A stretch of DNA of 59,573 bases from a virus (lineage: Duplodnaviria > Caudoviricetes): the IMG/VR virus record IMGVR_UViG_3300026125_000003, positions 1 through 59,573 of that record; one strand, written 5' to 3'. The translations under genes were made by a program, and so were the position numbers. Shown here one piece after another: positions 15,977 through 22,742 of this stretch (position 1 is its first letter; each line of letters opens with the position of its first letter). The notes beneath the pieces were generated by a model that was not told the DNA's origin, did not search any database, and saw only the letters and a program-made list of their open reading frames with translations.

Positions 15977-16279
15977 ATGAATAATGTTAAAGCTGGTGAC
16001 CTGATCAAGTCTTACGATTTCTCTGCTGAACTGCAGCCAGGATGCTACATGGTTGGTCTAGTAAAAGAAATCGAAGCTGGTGGTATCATCGTTTGTGATA
16101 TGATCAAATCTTTCTTTGCTGGTGAGGAATATGCCCACCCTAACAAGGCAGATGGTTTCCGCACGCTGGCTCAGGGTTTGGGGTTCTTTGATGATGAAAG
16201 CACTCGTATCGAAATAATCGCTACAGCCGAAGAGCTTGCCCTAGTAATGTCTGAACTTTGCGATGAGGAGTTCCACTAA
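15977..16279 (+). CDS. early hypothetical protein
   Basis: AAGGA RBS; first ORF after the promoter. Confidence 0.7.
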   Translation: MNNVKAGDLIKSYDFSAELQPGCYMVGLVKEIEAGGIIVCDMIKSFFAGEEYAHPNKADGFRTLAQGLGFFDDESTRIEIIATAEELALVMSELCDEEFH

Positions 16280-16860
16280 TGCGTAGAGATAAAGTAATCC
16301 TGACTGACGTTGATGGCGTCCTTCTTGACTGGCAGTACCACTTTGAACAGTGGATGAATAAACATGAATATGTCCTTGTCAACCCAGACGTGTATTCTAT
16401 CATGGAGGCGTATGACCTGCAGCCCCTCGAGAAGAAACGTTTGACTCGTATGTTCAATGAGTCAGCAACGATTCGCAAGTTGTCTCCGTTACGGGATGCT
16501 GTTAAGTATGTCAAGAAACTACACGAAGAACACGGTTACATCTTTCATGTAATAAGTTCTTTGAGCACCGACGAATATGCCCAGCACCTTCGGACTAAGA
16601 ATCTTCGCGAGTTGTTTGGTAATGGTGTGTTCGATCAGTTTATCTACCTTGATACTGGGGCTGATAAAGATGAAGTTCTTGAGGCGTACAGAGATACCGA
16701 ATGCTACTGGATAGAAGATAAGCCAGAGAATGCTGACGTTGGTTGGGATCTTGGGTTAGACAGTATCCTTATGAGCCACAGCCATAATTCTGACTACAAT
16801 GGTGAAGCCAAAGTGGTCAACAACTGGAAAGAAATATACGATATTATCGTTGGAGAGTAA
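16279..16860 (+). CDS. HAD-family 5'(3')-deoxyribonucleotidase-like protein (T4 30.2-like)
   Basis: ILTDVDGVLLDW, K in DKDEVL, WIEDKPEN. Confidence 0.8.
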   Translation: MRRDKVILTDVDGVLLDWQYHFEQWMNKHEYVLVNPDVYSIMEAYDLQPLEKKRLTRMFNESATIRKLSPLRDAVKYVKKLHEEHGYIFHVISSLSTDEYAQHLRTKNLRELFGNGVFDQFIYLDTGADKDEVLEAYRDTECYWIEDKPENADVGWDLGLDSILMSHSHNSDYNGEAKVVNNWKEIYDIIVGE

Positions 16861-17133: not shown

Positions 17134-17141
17134 TATAAATA
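17134..17141 (+). promoter_or_regulatory. late promoter TATAAATA
   Basis: Exact consensus about 25 nt before ATG 17167. Confidence 0.7.
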
Positions 17142-17166: not shown

Positions 17167-17718
17167 ATGTTTAAAAAATTAGGAACTCATGACTTAACTA
17201 TATCTGAAGAAGACTACGGAGACAAGGTAGATTCTTACACTAAGGATTTTGATGGGGTTGAGCGAGGTTCACACTATTACGAATTCGCTGATCAAGATTA
17301 TGAGAAAGCGTTTATAGAGCGGTTCCTTCCAGAAGAACTAGTCGGGTTTTTTGATGCTAAGATAATGGTGTTAGATTACCCTAATATCCCACCTCATGTT
17401 GATAATGGCTCTAAAGTTACTATCAATATGTATGTCGAAACCGCTGGCGCGACCACAACTTTTTATAGCGACGACCCGAAATCGGCTGACATTGCCGAAA
17501 GGTTAGAAAATCAATCTGACGGTGGTGCTCTGTTTGATGCTTCAACGTTGAATGTTGATTCTTCCTTTGTTGCCGAAAAAGGCGATGTTTACTTGCTAGA
17601 CATCTCGAAAATTCATTCTGTTGATTTTGCTGACACAGAAGCGAAAAGGGTTGTAATCGTTATTCAGTCTTCGAGCCTTTCTTATGACGATGTAAAGGAT
17701 GCCGCGTTTAACTTCTAA
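17167..17718 (+). CDS. cupin / 2OG-Fe(II) oxygenase-like protein
   Basis: IPPHVD (HxD) ... IHSV and a downstream R, double-stranded beta-helix pattern. Confidence 0.6.
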   Translation: MFKKLGTHDLTISEEDYGDKVDSYTKDFDGVERGSHYYEFADQDYEKAFIERFLPEELVGFFDAKIMVLDYPNIPPHVDNGSKVTINMYVETAGATTTFYSDDPKSADIAERLENQSDGGALFDASTLNVDSSFVAEKGDVYLLDISKIHSVDFADTEAKRVVIVIQSSSLSYDDVKDAAFNF

Positions 17719-17741
17719 GCATATTCTAAAACGATATAAAA

Positions 17742-17767
17742 AAAGCCTCTTCGGAGGCTTTACTTTT
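17742..17767. terminator. intrinsic terminator (UUCG), probably bidirectional, overlapping a promoter -35
   Basis: AAAGCCTC-TTCG-GAGGCTTT with an upstream A-run and downstream T-rich tail. Confidence 0.8.
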
Positions 17768-17787
17768 GCCCAACTTTACTCTATAAT
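17759..17787 (+). promoter_or_regulatory. early promoter
   Basis: TTTACT-17-TATAAT plus ACATGTATAAATTGA leader. Confidence 0.85.
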
Positions 17788-17819
17788 ACATGTATAAATT
17801 GAGTGAAAGGAAATTTGTT

Positions 17820-17954
17820 ATGAAAACTTTTAAAATCAGCCTACAGAATCGCGCAATCGGAAAGATCGTTGAAGCAGATACTCGCGCGGAAGCAGTGAAG
17901 ATTGCTAAAGCGATCTACGGAACTTCTAAAGTGTCAGTTGTGTGTATTGATTAA
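17820..17954 (+). CDS. early micro-protein (44 aa), not in ORF track
   Basis: MKTFKISLQNRAIGKIVEADTRAEAVKIAKAIYG...; AAGGA RBS. Confidence 0.65.
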   Translation: MKTFKISLQNRAIGKIVEADTRAEAVKIAKAIYGTSKVSVVCID

Positions 17955-17969
17955 TAAGGAAACTATATT

Positions 17970-18125
17970 ATGTTTATGATGAAAAGAATTACATTGAAGT
18001 CTGGTGGTACATTAATCACTCGTAGTGAAGTTGCTTTAGAGCAAGTTAAGGAAACCTTTAAAGATCAGATCGTTAAGATCGAGGATACCAATTATTCTGA
18101 ATTGAACACTACAATGGAACAGTAA
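17970..18125 (+). CDS. early micro-protein (51 aa), not in ORF track
   Basis: MFMMKRITLKSGG...; TAAGGA RBS. Confidence 0.65.
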   Translation: MFMMKRITLKSGGTLITRSEVALEQVKETFKDQIVKIEDTNYSELNTTMEQ

Positions 18126-18133
18126 GGTGTTGA

Positions 18134-18241
18134 ATGACACGGATAGACAAAGAAGTAATTGCAAATGGTGTGTTCGAACTCATAAGACTCGTAGCATACA
18201 TTTTAATTTGCATAGCTACAATTAAGTACATTGCATATTAA
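18134..18241 (+). CDS. micro membrane protein (35 aa), not in ORF track
   Basis: MTRIDKEVIANGVFELIRLVAYILICIATIKYIAY; TAAGGT RBS. Confidence 0.5.
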   Translation: MTRIDKEVIANGVFELIRLVAYILICIATIKYIAY

Positions 18242-18246
18242 CAAAA

Positions 18247-18672
18247 GGATCCCTGAGTCCCCCATGTGTTGGTTGGCGTGAAGAGAAATCTTCCGAGAGG
18301 TTGGTGGGGACACGAGACGAAGATAGAGGTTGGTGTTTTAAAAGGGGTTAATATCCCCAATAGACCTGTGAGTCAACTTCTTATGTCGCAAATGAAGGAA
18401 CTGAAATCCGTATTGTCGACGGTGGGACGTTCCGGAAAACAGTCGTTCCGTATGGGTGTGGCCAATCACCCTATAAATAAAGCAGAGTGTAAGCGGTGGG
18501 CTTCAAACCCCATTTAAGGAAACAGGTAGACAAATAGCAACACCTCAGTGACATGTTGGCAAGTTAAAGTTAGTCGTAAAACGCCATAGACTATCTACTT
18601 AAGATCACTAGGTTGGGATTGGAAGTTGCGATGCTGATGACTCCCATAGGTCAGCACTATATCTCAGGGTCT
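18247..18672 (+). ncRNA. candidate large structured ncRNA (~425 nt)
   Basis: No credible ORF; closing helix GGATCCCTGAG/CTCAGGGTCT; many internal helices; GAAA tetraloop and a T-loop-like hairpin. Confidence 0.55.
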
Positions 18673-18677
18673 TAGTT

Positions 18678-19234
18678 GTTACGATCTCTCAGTTAAAAGC
18701 TGTCGTAACGTAAAGCGAAGTCCAATATGATTAGCTCCTAAGGGTGCCCTGAGGCCAATTTTAGAAAGCAGATTGGGTAAAGCGTGGAAAGTGTGCTAGC
18801 CTCCACAGCGAGAAGTACCGATACGGCTTCTCTCAGCCATGGTCCAGTCTGTTTTCTAAAGAGCATCACCCCAGTTAAGTCTGGAGCACATCTGATAAAG
18901 TGTGTGGTGCTCTTTCTAAAGTACATTGAAAACACAGCAACTAGATCCCCTTACATGGCTGCAGTTTGGGATGGTGTTCTAGGAAAGCGGATCAGTGTAC
19001 TTTCTAATTCACAGTGATGCTCAAATCAGGCTCCACTACTCCAGTGTATGGAAGATAGAGAGCCTAAGCCTATCCTGAGAAGAACCTCCTTGTAATTCCT
19101 ATGTGCACGTAGGTTGATAATACTGGATAAGGATCGAAAGGTCGGGAGCCAGTAACTTTTACAAAGCAGGCTGCGTAAAGCGTGGTAAGGTTCAGCGAGT
19201 ACGTAGAAGACCACGTACAGTCTGTTTTCTAAAA
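18678..19234 (+). ncRNA. candidate array of stem-closed small structured RNAs
   Basis: Four 12-17 bp closing stems, each ending at TTTCTAA; two modules share CAGTCTGTTTTCTAAA, GTAAAGCGTGG and CAGCGAG. Confidence 0.6.
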
Positions 19235-19247
19235 AGAGAAACCCCTA

Positions 19248-19610
19248 ATGAAAAAGAAAGTCCTAATAGTAGACGACGATTTAACAATCATTAATGTATA
19301 TAAACGAGTCCTCGCTAAGAACGGGTATGAACCAATAGTGATGCGTTCCCCTCGTAAAGCGGACCTTGAAAACATACCTGAAGTCGACATCGCGATAGTC
19401 GATATGGTAATGCCTTATGTAAGTGGATTTGATTTTGTGTTGTACTTACATGAAAAGAAAATCAATATACCAGTACTGATAGTGTCCGGCGATAAAGGAA
19501 TCGCCAGGATGGTTACAACTATCAGAAGGGGTGAACTAACCGATGGTTGGTTGTATAAACCTGTCGCAGGTCACCAACTAATCGCAAAGATTGAGGAAAT
19601 CCTTTCTTGA
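19248..19610 (+). CDS. stand-alone response regulator receiver (CheY-like) protein
   Basis: VLIVDDD, phospho-acceptor Asp in IVDMVMP..SGF, VSG, YKP. Confidence 0.9.
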   Translation: MKKKVLIVDDDLTIINVYKRVLAKNGYEPIVMRSPRKADLENIPEVDIAIVDMVMPYVSGFDFVLYLHEKKINIPVLIVSGDKGIARMVTTIRRGELTDGWLYKPVAGHQLIAKIEEILS

Positions 19611-20050: not shown

Positions 20051-20314
20051 ATGATTAACTTTGTAACTGGAAAACCTTACACTGGTGAAAACGCAATGAT
20101 CCTTGCGGAATCAGGTTTTTCTGACCAGCGTTTTATGACATTCAACCAAGCACGTAGCTGTGGACGCAAAGTCCTTAAAGGTTCTAAAGGCATTCAGCTG
20201 ATGCGCGTCATTGAGAAAGAAGTTCGAAACGAAAAGACTGGTAAGCTGGAAAAGAAAAAGCTGCCAAAACGTTTCACTGTATTCAATGTAGCCCAGACTG
20301 AAGAGGTGGCTTAA
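20051..20314 (+). CDS. ArdC-like ssDNA-binding N-terminal domain protein
   Basis: NFVTGKPYTGEN, FMTFNQA..GRKVLKGSKG, FTVFNVAQTE. Confidence 0.8.
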   Translation: MINFVTGKPYTGENAMILAESGFSDQRFMTFNQARSCGRKVLKGSKGIQLMRVIEKEVRNEKTGKLEKKKLPKRFTVFNVAQTEEVA

Positions 20315-20938: not shown

Positions 20939-21163
20939 ATGGAAGAACAATTTCTCAATCCCAAGAAGTTCTCCATGTTAGTGGAACAGCGTGTCAAGGT
21001 TAGCTCTACTGGCTACCTTGATACCATTATGGAACTTTGCGACGAAATGAGCCTCGACTTTGAGGACATACCTTCCCTGATTACTAATGTGATCAAAGGT
21101 AAAATTGAAGCTGAGGCAATACAACTTAACTATATGAAGGGTGGTAACACTTTACCAATATGA
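20939..21163 (+). CDS. gp33: late transcription co-activator
   Basis: FSMLVEQRV..YLDTI..LCDE..IKGKIEAEAIQLNY..LPI; synteny 33-59-32. Confidence 0.88.
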   Translation: MEEQFLNPKKFSMLVEQRVKVSSTGYLDTIMELCDEMSLDFEDIPSLITNVIKGKIEAEAIQLNYMKGGNTLPI

Positions 21164-21756
21164 CTATGGCACTTGAACCTTTTGACGCTTACCGATTTTA
21201 CAACGCTCTCAAATTACATTTTGGTGGAACGTATGACGCCATAAAATATCAATACAAGACGAGCGCTAACCAGAAATCGTTTTGGAAGAGAAAGGACAAG
21301 TTCTTCTTCGCTAAAATTGCCAAGAAGTTCAACGATCCGCATGACCTGATCAACTACTATGTATCATTCTTCGTCAATGACTCAAAATGGGTCGGTGATA
21401 TGCTAAAGGACGAAGATACATATTTGAAATGGTTAAAGAAAGTTGAATCTCTTGGCTACTTGGTGGAACAAGATCTCTATACTCTAGAATCTTCGCACGG
21501 CTCGTTCGACGACTTATTCAAAGTTGAAGACGGTCAGTATCCCCCAATCATCCAGAGTTATCTCGCCGATGAAATCATGCTCGAGACTGTCGTAGTCTTA
21601 GATCAAATGCTTGGTTTCGTTAGGAAAGCCGATAAGAAGGTTACAGATACAATAATGTGGCCAGACATAAAGACCAAAATCGAAAAGTATAGTCCCTTCT
21701 TATCGGTGGACCAAAATAAAGTCAAAAAATCTATTCTAAAGGTATTTACTTCTTAA
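21160..21756 (+). CDS. gp59: helicase loader
   Basis: FDAYRFYNALKLHF..YDAIKY..F.KRKDKFFFAK, I.LET.V.LD, KYSPFL. Confidence 0.9.
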   Translation: MTMALEPFDAYRFYNALKLHFGGTYDAIKYQYKTSANQKSFWKRKDKFFFAKIAKKFNDPHDLINYYVSFFVNDSKWVGDMLKDEDTYLKWLKKVESLGYLVEQDLYTLESSHGSFDDLFKVEDGQYPPIIQSYLADEIMLETVVVLDQMLGFVRKADKKVTDTIMWPDIKTKIEKYSPFLSVDQNKVKKSILKVFTS

Positions 21757-21836: not shown

Positions 21837-22742
21837 ATGTCATTTGCATCTCTAAAAAAATCTCGCTCATCTTCTATGGACAAACTGCTTAAAGCGGCAG
21901 AAAAAGTAGGTGGTGGTGAAAAGAAATCTTATGGTGACGACCGTCAGTGGAAACCAACTCGCGATAAAAGCGGCAATGGTTACGCTGTAATCCGATTCCT
22001 ACCGCCAGCAGAAGGTGAAGACCTTCCATGGGTCCAGTACTGGTCACACGGCTTCCAAGGTCCAACTGGTAAATGGTACATCGAAAATTCTTTGACTTCA
22101 ATCGGTCAAACTGACCCAGTCTCTGAATACAACTCAACGCTTTGGAATAGCGGTTCTGAAGAGGACAAAGAACAGGCTCGTAAGCAGAAACGTCGACTAC
22201 ACTACGTAGCAAACGTTCTTGTTGTTTCCGACCCAGCTAATCCTCAGAATGAAGGTCAGGTAAAACTCTACACCTTTGGTAAGAAAATCTTTGATAAAAT
22301 CATGGATAAGATGCAGCCAGAGTTTGCGGGTGAAGAGCCAATGAACCCATTCGATATGTGGGAAGGTGCTGAATTTAAGATTAAGATTCGTCAGGTTTCC
22401 GGATACCCTAACTACGATTCTTCTGAATTTGCGGCTCCTTCTGAACTATTTGAAGGCGACGATGAGTCTAAAGAAGAAGTATACAACAAACTGTATAAAC
22501 TTTCTGAGTTCACCGACCCAGCTAATTACAAATCGTACAGTGAGTTGAAGAAGAAACTTGATCAGGTTCTCGGCGGTAACTCTACCCCAATGACTACTGC
22601 TGAGTCAATCGACCTTGATGAAGTTGCTCCTGCGCCAGTGCAAAAGGTAGCTGCCCCAAAACCAGCGCCAGCTGTTGAGGAAGAAGTTGAAGAAGACGAT
22701 GACACTCTATCGTACTTTGCTAAACTGGCTTCTGACAGTTAA
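21837..22742 (+). CDS. gp32: single-stranded DNA-binding protein
   Basis: DKSGNGYAVIRFLP, HGFQGPTGKWYIENSL, FGKKIFDKI, acidic tail DDTLSYFAKLA. Confidence 0.96.
   Translation: MSFASLKKSRSSSMDKLLKAAEKVGGGEKKSYGDDRQWKPTRDKSGNGYAVIRFLPPAEGEDLPWVQYWSHGFQGPTGKWYIENSLTSIGQTDPVSEYNSTLWNSGSEEDKEQARKQKRRLHYVANVLVVSDPANPQNEGQVKLYTFGKKIFDKIMDKMQPEFAGEEPMNPFDMWEGAEFKIKIRQVSGYPNYDSSEFAAPSELFEGDDESKEEVYNKLYKLSEFTDPANYKSYSELKKKLDQVLGGNSTPMTTAESIDLDEVAPAPVQKVAAPKPAPAVEEEVEEDDDTLSYFAKLASDS

Follow-up and report, generated by a model that had tools for sequence, protein, structure and literature searches.

Phage T4 makes transfer RNAs (tRNAs) together with two further species, RNA C and RNA D, by means of the tRNA-processing and RNA-decay enzymes of its host. 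Both are encoded next to tRNA-Arg, their 5' and 3' ends pair, and the rnaC sequence folds strongly (z -4.6); in the passages of PMC3014915 and PMC9697503 devoted to them, as stable RNA species 1 and 2, their role is given as unknown. The present work concerns a locus that invites comparison with this pair, a gap of 1.12 kb between genes (positions 18126-19247) in the IMG/VR virus record IMGVR_UViG_3300026125_000003. The whole record of 59,573 bases, the estimated completeness of which is 33%, was analysed and is referred to below as the window.

The RNA known as GOLLD measures about 800 nucleotides (nt). GOLLD and ROOL are presented, in the part of PMC5737381 that concerns us here, as structured RNAs of unknown function that are often located near tRNA genes in phages or prophages, ROOL having an average length of 581 nt. 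A different type of element, the promoter-early stem-loops (PeSL), consists of conserved stem-loops in T4-like phages at which unrelated segments swap, as set out in the relevant portion of PMC4122927. On a larger scale, Fremin et al. 2023 (PMC10690425) report 8,495 candidate structured RNAs from IMG/VR, including tRNA-like ones. Our literature searches returned no description of a row of RNAs such as the one presented here, nor does the main text of PMC10690425 contain one; its supplementary tables may include some of the motifs described here.

The explanation we favour, with a probability of about 0.68, is that about eight RNA modules (A, B, C, D, H2, H3, F and G) are encoded one after another on the + strand of the gap, each folding on its own, and would be cassettes of a tRNA cluster. 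Together with the spacer that precedes them, they are as follows (stem lengths in base pairs, bp; open reading frame, ORF):

18126..18246, + strand: spacer after ORF 17970-18125, devoid of coding signal, fold not significant (z -0.27)
18247..18527, + strand: module A, structured RNA of ~280 nt showing covariation with the metagenomic locus L015
18536..18659, + strand: module B, conserved unit of ~124 nt, fold z +0.39
18660..18757, + strand: module C, closed RNA of ~96 nt, z -3.12 on the + strand and -2.44 on the minus strand
18758..18861, + strand: module D, closed hairpin of ~104 nt, z -5.05 on the + strand and -3.71 on the minus strand
18852..18920, + strand: module H2, 12-bp stem AAAGAGCAUCAC / GUGGUGCUCUUU closing two small hairpins (inverted repeat I3)
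18918..19006, + strand: module H3, 12-bp stem AAAGUACAUUGA / UCAGUGUACUUU with an interior of ~62 nt (inverted repeat I8, 92%)
19007..19156, + strand: module F, ~150 nt, with a conserved 5' block AUGCUCAAAUC and a 3' hairpin (19121-26/19149-54) enclosing GGAUC-GAAA-GGUC
19157..19236, + strand: module G, closed hairpin of ~80 nt and shorter relative of D, z -3.38 on the + strand and -1.96 on the minus strand

By analogy, these modules are best read, in the manner of T4 RNA C and RNA D, as small stable RNAs that belong to the tRNA cluster of a phage. As in T4, small RNAs other than tRNAs would be encoded in tandem with tRNA genes by a phage of the T4 type, and the placement is the same: in the related locus L014 the modules are on the same strand as the tRNA genes and abut them, and on a contig from the sea the end of a tRNA-Tyr gene precedes G. 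The differences are equally plain, since T4 has two such RNAs whereas here about eight of several types stand in a row, their presence varies and one of them is pseudoknotted and ~280 nt long; moreover, T4 RNA C has a canonical T-arm, which no module of the window possesses.

The gap is the largest between plausible genes in the window, and it is non-coding. Its four ORFs, of 62-83 amino acids (aa), score -0.03 to -0.26 bits per codon, compared with a mean of +0.34 (standard deviation 0.12, minimum 0.035) for the 34 long genes used for training. Alignment of window positions 18243-18540 with L015 (145-420, minus strand) gives 77% identity with indels of 14, 3, 2, 1 and 1 nt, which rule out a shared ORF; the poor codon scores and these frame-breaking indels led us to reject a hidden protein gene. 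Complete small ORFs flank the gap on either side. A first-pass annotation, made by a model from the letters alone, had already placed the interval 18247-18672 at the opening of a gene-free gap of ~1 kb, and in this it was right. The phage itself is a distant, uncultured relative of T4. Its T4-type helicase loader (gp59) is encoded at 21160-21756 and was matched by tblastn in 1,240 phage records, with a top identity of just 42%; the ORF of 301 aa that comes next (21837-22742) sits in the place of gp32 in T4-like phages, and is a putative gp32, so named for its position and size. Among GenBank phages, the gap has no DNA match at all, and matches to a neighbouring 20-kb stretch cover only 134 nt.

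On comparative grounds, module A, ~280 nt long, is a genuine structured RNA that seems not to have been described before. When its alignment with L015 is folded by RNAalifold, 56 pairs are predicted, 13 of which are changed on both sides while none is broken; column-shuffled alignments contain 3.1-3.3 compensatory pairs on average and 8 at the most. The consensus energy lies at z -4.45 (200 column shuffles) or z -5.31 (100) on the + strand and at z -3.76 on the minus strand. An exhaustive list of the helices possible in both sequences holds four with at least two compensatory changes, as against a mean of 0.37 and a maximum of 3 in 100 shuffles. Seven helices were assembled into a model, listed here with a further hairpin that is confined to the window:

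18257-62/18306-11, + strand: helix P2
18325-34/18372-81, + strand: helix P3
18344-46/18356-58, + strand: helix P3a
18364-69/18522-27, + strand: pseudoknot Pk, ACCTGT/ACAGGT
18397-401/18429-33, + strand: helix P4
18454-58/18467-71, + strand: helix P5, GGGUG/CACCC
18495-500/18509-14, + strand: helix P6
18280-93, + strand: hairpin with a GAAA loop, specific to the window

The seven helices comprise 39 pairs, with 78 of 78 cells paired and 13 pairs doubly changed; six of the seven vary between the window and L015 and none is broken. Controls in which the 3' partners were slid by 1-3 columns retain 0-3 double changes and 35-56% pairing, but the model was built from the same two sequences on which it is scored and such controls thus flatter it. 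Pk, which has 4 bp in the aligned register and was extended by eye to 6 bp, crosses P3, and module A is therefore pseudoknotted. A helix P1 between the 5' end of A (18247-55) and 18440-49 is possible but invariant and was left out of the model. The string AGAGGTTGGT is present twice in A, at 18296-18305 and 18325-18334, and its first copy can pair with the 3' strand of P3 over 7 bp in both the window and L015; this pairing may represent an alternative conformer.

All the motifs named in the first-pass annotation are there, at or within 1-2 nt of the positions it gave, and its central idea of a real, conserved, multi-helix RNA in this region survives in the form of module A. Between the window and L015, the GTCCCC/GGGGAC helix has undergone two double changes and a single one, and ACCTGT/ACAGGT two double changes (to ACCCUU/AAGGGU). 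GGGTG/CACCC, which is P5, occurs in three different paired versions, since in addition to the window and L015 a partial third copy on an estuary contig (X4, read by hand) has AGUGC/GCACU. Two other motifs did not hold up as parts of the conserved fold: the GAAGA-GAAA-TCTTC hairpin is an insertion in the window that L015 lacks, and the 3' arm of GGTGTT/AACACC falls in module B, which does not adjoin A in L015 or X4. The candidate helices AGTGA/TCACT, TAGTC/GACTA and TGCTGA/TCAGCA also lie in module B, which by itself folds at z +0.39. The T-arm-like GTGGG/CCCAT element keeps its stem but not its loop, CTTCAAAC being AGCAGT in L015; a T-loop in P6 was rejected because of this lack of conservation.

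What had been proposed was a single ornate RNA of ~425 nt, of the GOLLD/ROOL type and closed by a long-range helix (18247-57/18663-72), an idea that now seems scarcely credible. The two arms are indeed complementary, over ~10 bp with one bulge, and the minimum free energy structure of the isolated interval makes use of them. Yet 18247-18672 folds at -118.9 kcal/mol, compared with -118.5 +/- 6.6 for 100 shuffles (z -0.06, 51 of the 100 being as good); the corresponding z is -0.43 on the minus strand, and the second half of the gap reaches -2.91 on the + strand with none of 100 shuffles as good. The interval in fact consists of module A (~280 nt), module B (~124 nt) and the first 13 nt of C, which are separate elsewhere. 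The would-be 3' arm, CTCAGGG at 18663, is the 5' strand of C and pairs locally, inside that module, with CCCTGAG at 18747; the closing helix is not supported because this partner (18747-53) is conserved, being kept in L014 and L015, where C is found without A upstream. Conversely, A is found without C downstream in L015 and X4. In L015 it lies 1.2 kb further on, after a homologue of the window ORF 17790-17954, and another gene directly follows it, as is also the case on one X4 contig.

The resemblance to GOLLD and ROOL is one of location and not of size or sequence. Relatives of C, H2, F and G are situated beside phage tRNA genes, between tRNA-Asn and tRNA-Tyr in L014, whereas a single molecule of ~580-800 nt has no counterpart here: A, the largest unit at ~280 nt, is at most half as long and its neighbours are separate. 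At the Rfam gathering score there are no matches in the whole window; at E<=10 on 17700-19400 there are six weak matches, all within 17728-18092, none in the gap and none to GOLLD or ROOL. The Rfam library includes models for transfer-messenger RNA (tmRNA) and YrlA. ARAGORN in its default mode finds no tRNA and no tmRNA in the window, and neither a group I intron nor RNase P RNA gives an Rfam match, the flanking ORFs being complete and without split exons. The earlier statement that the region matches none of tmRNA, RNase P RNA or group I introns is thus upheld by both Rfam and ARAGORN. The row reads as a first unit, A, followed by further cassettes and not as a GOLLD-like molecule of 425 nt.

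That the units are separate is seen most directly in contigs of other samples, which carry sharply bounded single modules of 77-98% identity. At least part of the stretch was detected by a word-index search in 24 runs from 17 studies, three freshwater runs, which may represent the source sample, with 0.85-0.87 of its words and the remaining 21 with 0.04-0.13. Contigs were compared from four runs, namely an estuary (X4), the sea (X6), a run labelled as a single organism (X9) and an estuary metatranscriptome (X23); positions 18920-19001 are without contig cover in all four. The contigs carry separate pieces of 80-99% identity with recurring borders (approximately 18247-18531, 18536-18658, 18660-18757, 18758-18861, 19007-19131/52 and 19157-19215), so that module borders fall at 18531/18536, 18658/18660, 18757/18758, 18861, 19006/19007, 19131 and 19156/19157. 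On one X4 contig 18658 is fused to 18758, that is, B is joined to D with the omission of exactly the 99 nt of C, the shorter side of the joint measuring 104 nt. The joints C-F, D-F and G-F, where one side measures only 21-22 nt or a few bases are left unmatched, were treated as weak. On the X6 contig the 3' end of tRNA-Tyr stands directly before 19157. Contigs with F, the G core and a piece of H2 are also present in two metatranscriptome runs, which is compatible with expression but no proof of it. X9 and three sister single-organism runs, all of them small DNA runs, harbour many short contigs of A, B, C, D, F and G (32 of them in X9) with word depths of ~8-50, which points to a sequenced isolate whose row of units is larger or repeated.

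Longer loci reveal the order of the units. A pattern scan of metagenomes returned four stretches: L014, L015, L016 (99.95% the same as L014) and L017, the last of which was dropped as a chance match in coding DNA. In viral_contigs one of five patterns matched, giving L019, and the four other exact patterns had no match; in genome_contigs neither of two patterns matched. The gp59 neighbourhoods of 12 related IMG/VR loci contain no similarity to the gap, and of five related records searched in full four have none, the fifth being the record of L019. In L014 the order is tRNA-Met, tRNA-Leu, an ORF, tRNA-Asn, C, H2, a longer relative of F, tRNA-Tyr, G and a gene, the units lying within the tRNA cluster downstream of a sigma-70-like promoter. 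Here C starts 3-4 nt after tRNA-Asn, and G at the very base that follows the CCA of tRNA-Tyr; relative to L014, exactly the tRNA-Tyr gene is missing from the window between F and G. In L015 a promoter with -10/-35-like elements is followed by C, a hairpin type not found in the window, D, an H3 stem with a G core, and a gene. The Rfam tRNA model, together with ARAGORN, matches only the four true tRNAs of L014 and nothing in L015. The orders in the two loci imply that tRNA genes and modules occupy equivalent slots and that any one unit may be there or missing independently of the others, their relative order being largely kept. Two non-coding segments that match no module of the window, L014 1855-2000 (before tRNA-Asn) and L019 9048-9130 (where the contig ends, after an H3-type unit), may represent additional types of unit.

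Among the smaller modules, C, D and G are closed hairpins with branched interiors. C is bounded by an acceptor-like stem of 7 bp, CUCAGGG/CCCUGAG, which a further 5-6 bp prolong and which has after it, at the 3' end, an unpaired G and then CCA; its interior has a 7+3-bp hairpin and a GUAAAGCG junction. In an alignment of three sequences its 34 pairs are never broken, with two double and three single changes, and GCCA is kept in all three. The first 60 aligned positions are identical throughout, against 80% identity for the neighbouring ORF and 77% for A. D has an 18-bp basal stem, UUUAGAAAGCAGAUUGG / CCAGUCUGUUUUCUAAA, that closes a junction of three small hairpins; its L015 copy is 87% identical, with 29 pairs, none broken, one double and one single change, and its borders are sharp in X4 and X9 contigs. 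D shares a UUUCUAAAG junction with H2, a 97% identical copy of which is present between C and the F-like module in L014 (2179-2247). In L015 and L019 the H3 stem surrounds a different interior, made up of the G core and two hairpins. The L014 copy of G is 94% identical, and its 29 pairs include none broken and three one-sided changes kept via G-U wobble, which fits an RNA made from the + strand. The core of G, CGUGG-(25-nt loop)-CCACG at 19174-19215, has 95-98% identity across L014, L015 and L019 (four sources with the window). F is found at 95-98% in X4, X9 and the RNA-library run X23, with a longer relative at ~2248-2512 of L014, and five of the ten pairs of its 3' hairpin are doubly changed with pairing kept. 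B is represented on an X4 contig (18536-18658, nine differences, joined straight to 18758-18861) and on X9 contigs (90-97%), and has no copy in any fetched locus. A basal motif UUUAGAAAG...CUUUCUAAAG is common to D, H2, H3, G and the extra L015 hairpin, and GTAAAGCG has 8 copies in the window for 1.75 expected, three of them in C, D and G. Every module tested folds better on the + than on the minus strand, and the orientation of the modules matches that of the L014 tRNAs; both observations were counted in favour of an RNA from the + strand.

The location in a tRNA cluster and the ends of C raise the question of whether the row could consist of tRNA genes that have decayed and no longer have any function. 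C does resemble a tRNA in its 7-bp terminal stem followed by G-CCA, and the units stand in tRNA slots; C alone combines an acceptor stem, a discriminator base and CCA, and D, H2, H3 and G are without CCA. With the threshold lowered to 90% and introns allowed, ARAGORN reports a tRNA-Ser carrying an intron of 16 nt in the H3-type unit of L015 and L019, which we consider a marginal hint; settings of 80% or below also call coding DNA and the wrong strand and were not used. On the other hand, the modules differ from tRNA, tmRNA and YrlA in having no cloverleaf, no T-loop and no match to default ARAGORN or Rfam, the lone relaxed call being marginal. Pseudogenes would drift, whereas the conservation of C and of the G core exceeds that of coding DNA, and pairs in C and A are kept by compensation. 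Decay from tRNA genes is accordingly a very improbable origin for the row.

The modules could instead be cis-acting punctuation, stable hairpins that direct RNases in cutting the polycistronic transcript and shield the ends of neighbouring tRNAs or mRNAs, without any function as free RNAs. The units are closed stems with A/U-rich linkers between them, four of the six window copies of TTTCTAAA lie within 18760-19233, and a unit of the G or H3 type always stands right before the start of a gene (window 19236/19248, L014 2674/2700, and L015); in the window G ends 12 nt before the ATG of a receiver-domain gene. Punctuation, though, needs a stem and not a sequence, and yet little or no variation is seen in 60 of 60 nt of C, its loops and junctions among them, or in the 25-nt loop of G, against a difference of 20% in the neighbouring ORF; furthermore, the seven-helix pseudoknotted fold of A goes well beyond a protective hairpin. 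We consider this explanation decidedly unlikely. The conservation of loops and junctions, greater than that of the stems and of the neighbouring coding DNA, favours sequence-specific recognition over punctuation, and the modules are probably recognised in this manner by a protein or RNA partner.

Quite improbable, in our view, is a third possibility, that the modules are selfish or recombinogenic DNA cassettes, comparable to miniature inverted-repeat transposable elements (MITE), bacterial interspersed mosaic elements (BIME) or PeSL, with their RNA folds as by-products. Their one-by-one presence would be explained, and the shared basal motif TTTAGAAAG...CTTTCTAAAG, which bounds the exchangeable units here much as PeSL do, could provide recombination points; interiors and stems evidently recombine, as illustrated by the G core inside an H3 stem in L015, and PeSL motifs mediate shuffling of this kind in T4-like phages (PMC4122927). 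PeSL, however, are composites of terminator and promoter that flank protein genes, whereas the swapped units are here folded RNAs and tRNA genes; an early promoter fused to a terminator stem-loop between flanking ORFs was not seen, and no promoter was found in the linkers. Each phage record has only one row, with no second copy in the 59.6-kb window, and all units share the orientation of the tRNAs. Stems accept G-U but not A-C, and the + strand therefore folds better; A has 13 compensatory pairs and contains no simple inverted repeat, and the most conserved parts of the units are their unpaired loops.

Returning to the interpretation as small stable RNAs of a tRNA cluster, we envisage the following scheme. 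Related uncultured aquatic T4-like phages would carry cassette-like RNA units inside their tRNA gene clusters, units and tRNA genes being arranged head to tail with short A/U-rich linkers between them. The row would be co-transcribed with the flanking genes of the + strand, after which host RNase E could cut at the A/U-rich linkers and host RNase P at the acceptor-like end of C, and the pieces would accumulate as stable small RNAs, as in T4. As to their activity, the modules might be mimics or decoys directed at tRNA-acting factors, a guess considerably more apt to fail than to hold. A wider and bolder proposal is that of an undescribed, interchangeable RNA cassette system in the tRNA clusters of aquatic T4-like phages, in which a new pseudoknotted class of ~280 nt (A) and a closed-stem family (C, D, G and the H type) occupy tRNA slots, are cut by the tRNA-processing machinery and serve as decoys or inhibitors of tRNA-targeting host factors such as anticodon nucleases and other tRNA-directed defences. 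Taken as a whole this is unlikely; if true, the decoy role would explain why units are gained and lost one by one.

Several observations weigh against the interpretation of the row as tRNA-cluster RNAs or limit its reach. Taken alone, A folds no better than shuffles (z +0.47), which makes its support purely comparative, and the full-length comparison involves a single homologue, L015, along with partial contig variants. B has no fold support (z +0.39), H2 and H3 jointly fold weakly (z -0.66), and F as a whole module is weak (z -2.7, 23 of 200 shuffles reaching the same compensatory count). Three of the module joints are possibly artefactual, one of their sides being shorter than 30 nt. The window itself contains no tRNA gene according to ARAGORN, its tRNA context coming from relatives only, and the Rfam tRNA model RF00005 matches no module at E<=1 to 10. 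No homology was detected to either rnaC or rnaD, blastn-short returning matches of 8-12 nt at E>=0.49 and nhmmer none in 9,944 nt of module rows; a supposed homology of the CCCUGAG string with T4 RNA D was rejected, being a 9-nt match with an E value of 1.6. The RNA-library data are assembled contigs that may include DNA, are strandless and do not show ends.

A link is now drawn between the tRNA clusters of phages and escape from tRNA-attacking host defences, and the non-tRNA RNAs found there, of which T4 RNA C and RNA D were the first known, have yet to be assigned a function. The locus offers a compact set of comparable RNAs with sharp borders, strongly conserved loops, one tRNA-like end and one knotted fold of 280 nt backed by covariation, and the gain and loss of units between related phages could be matched to hosts or defence systems. 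A cultured system may exist, given the single-organism-labelled runs that contain modules. Even if the RNAs proved to be nothing more than selfish cassettes or signals for processing, the locus would reveal the way in which the tRNA clusters of T4-like phages are rebuilt.

As regards transcription signals, a consensus promoter scan left the spacer (18126-18246) empty and revealed no promoter-like site anywhere inside the gap. An A/T-rich -10-like element, ATATTAACA, is located immediately 5' of module A, and an A/T-rich TAtaAA-like string is seen 4-6 nt upstream of AAAGGATCC in three independent contexts, the window, L015 (TATAAAACA) and an X6 contig (TTTAATAAACA); the element before A is a possible promoter but not an established one. 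The only terminator-like site in the gap is on the + strand at 19199-19218, within module G. The TATAAATA string noted in the first-pass annotation at 18472 is present but not conserved, reading TAGAAATA in L015 and being altered in X4, and a late promoter at this position was rejected since the copy is not kept in either. TATAAATA is the late-promoter motif of T4 and occurs 15 times in the window for 4.2 copies expected, 13 of them on the + strand (e.g., at 17134, 14313 and 18472), some just upstream of ORF starts; on account of this over-representation, it is probably the late promoter motif of the window phage as well. A candidate anti-Shine-Dalgarno mimic in F, ACCUCCUU, was rejected because it is not conserved in the L014 relative.

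Directly 3' of the RNA row, the + strand encodes at 19248-19610 a stand-alone response-regulator receiver domain of 120 aa (PF00072, E 1.5e-13), an unusual gene for a T4-like phage. Neither this protein nor the other flanking one, encoded by an ORF of 183 aa, has a close relative in viral_contigs. Further genes of the + strand in the vicinity code for a protein of 87 aa that matches the N-terminal domain of the anti-restriction factor ArdC (20051-20314; PF08401, E 1.8e-15) and for an NT5C-type 5'-nucleotidase of 193 aa (16279-16860; PF06941, E 5.4e-10).

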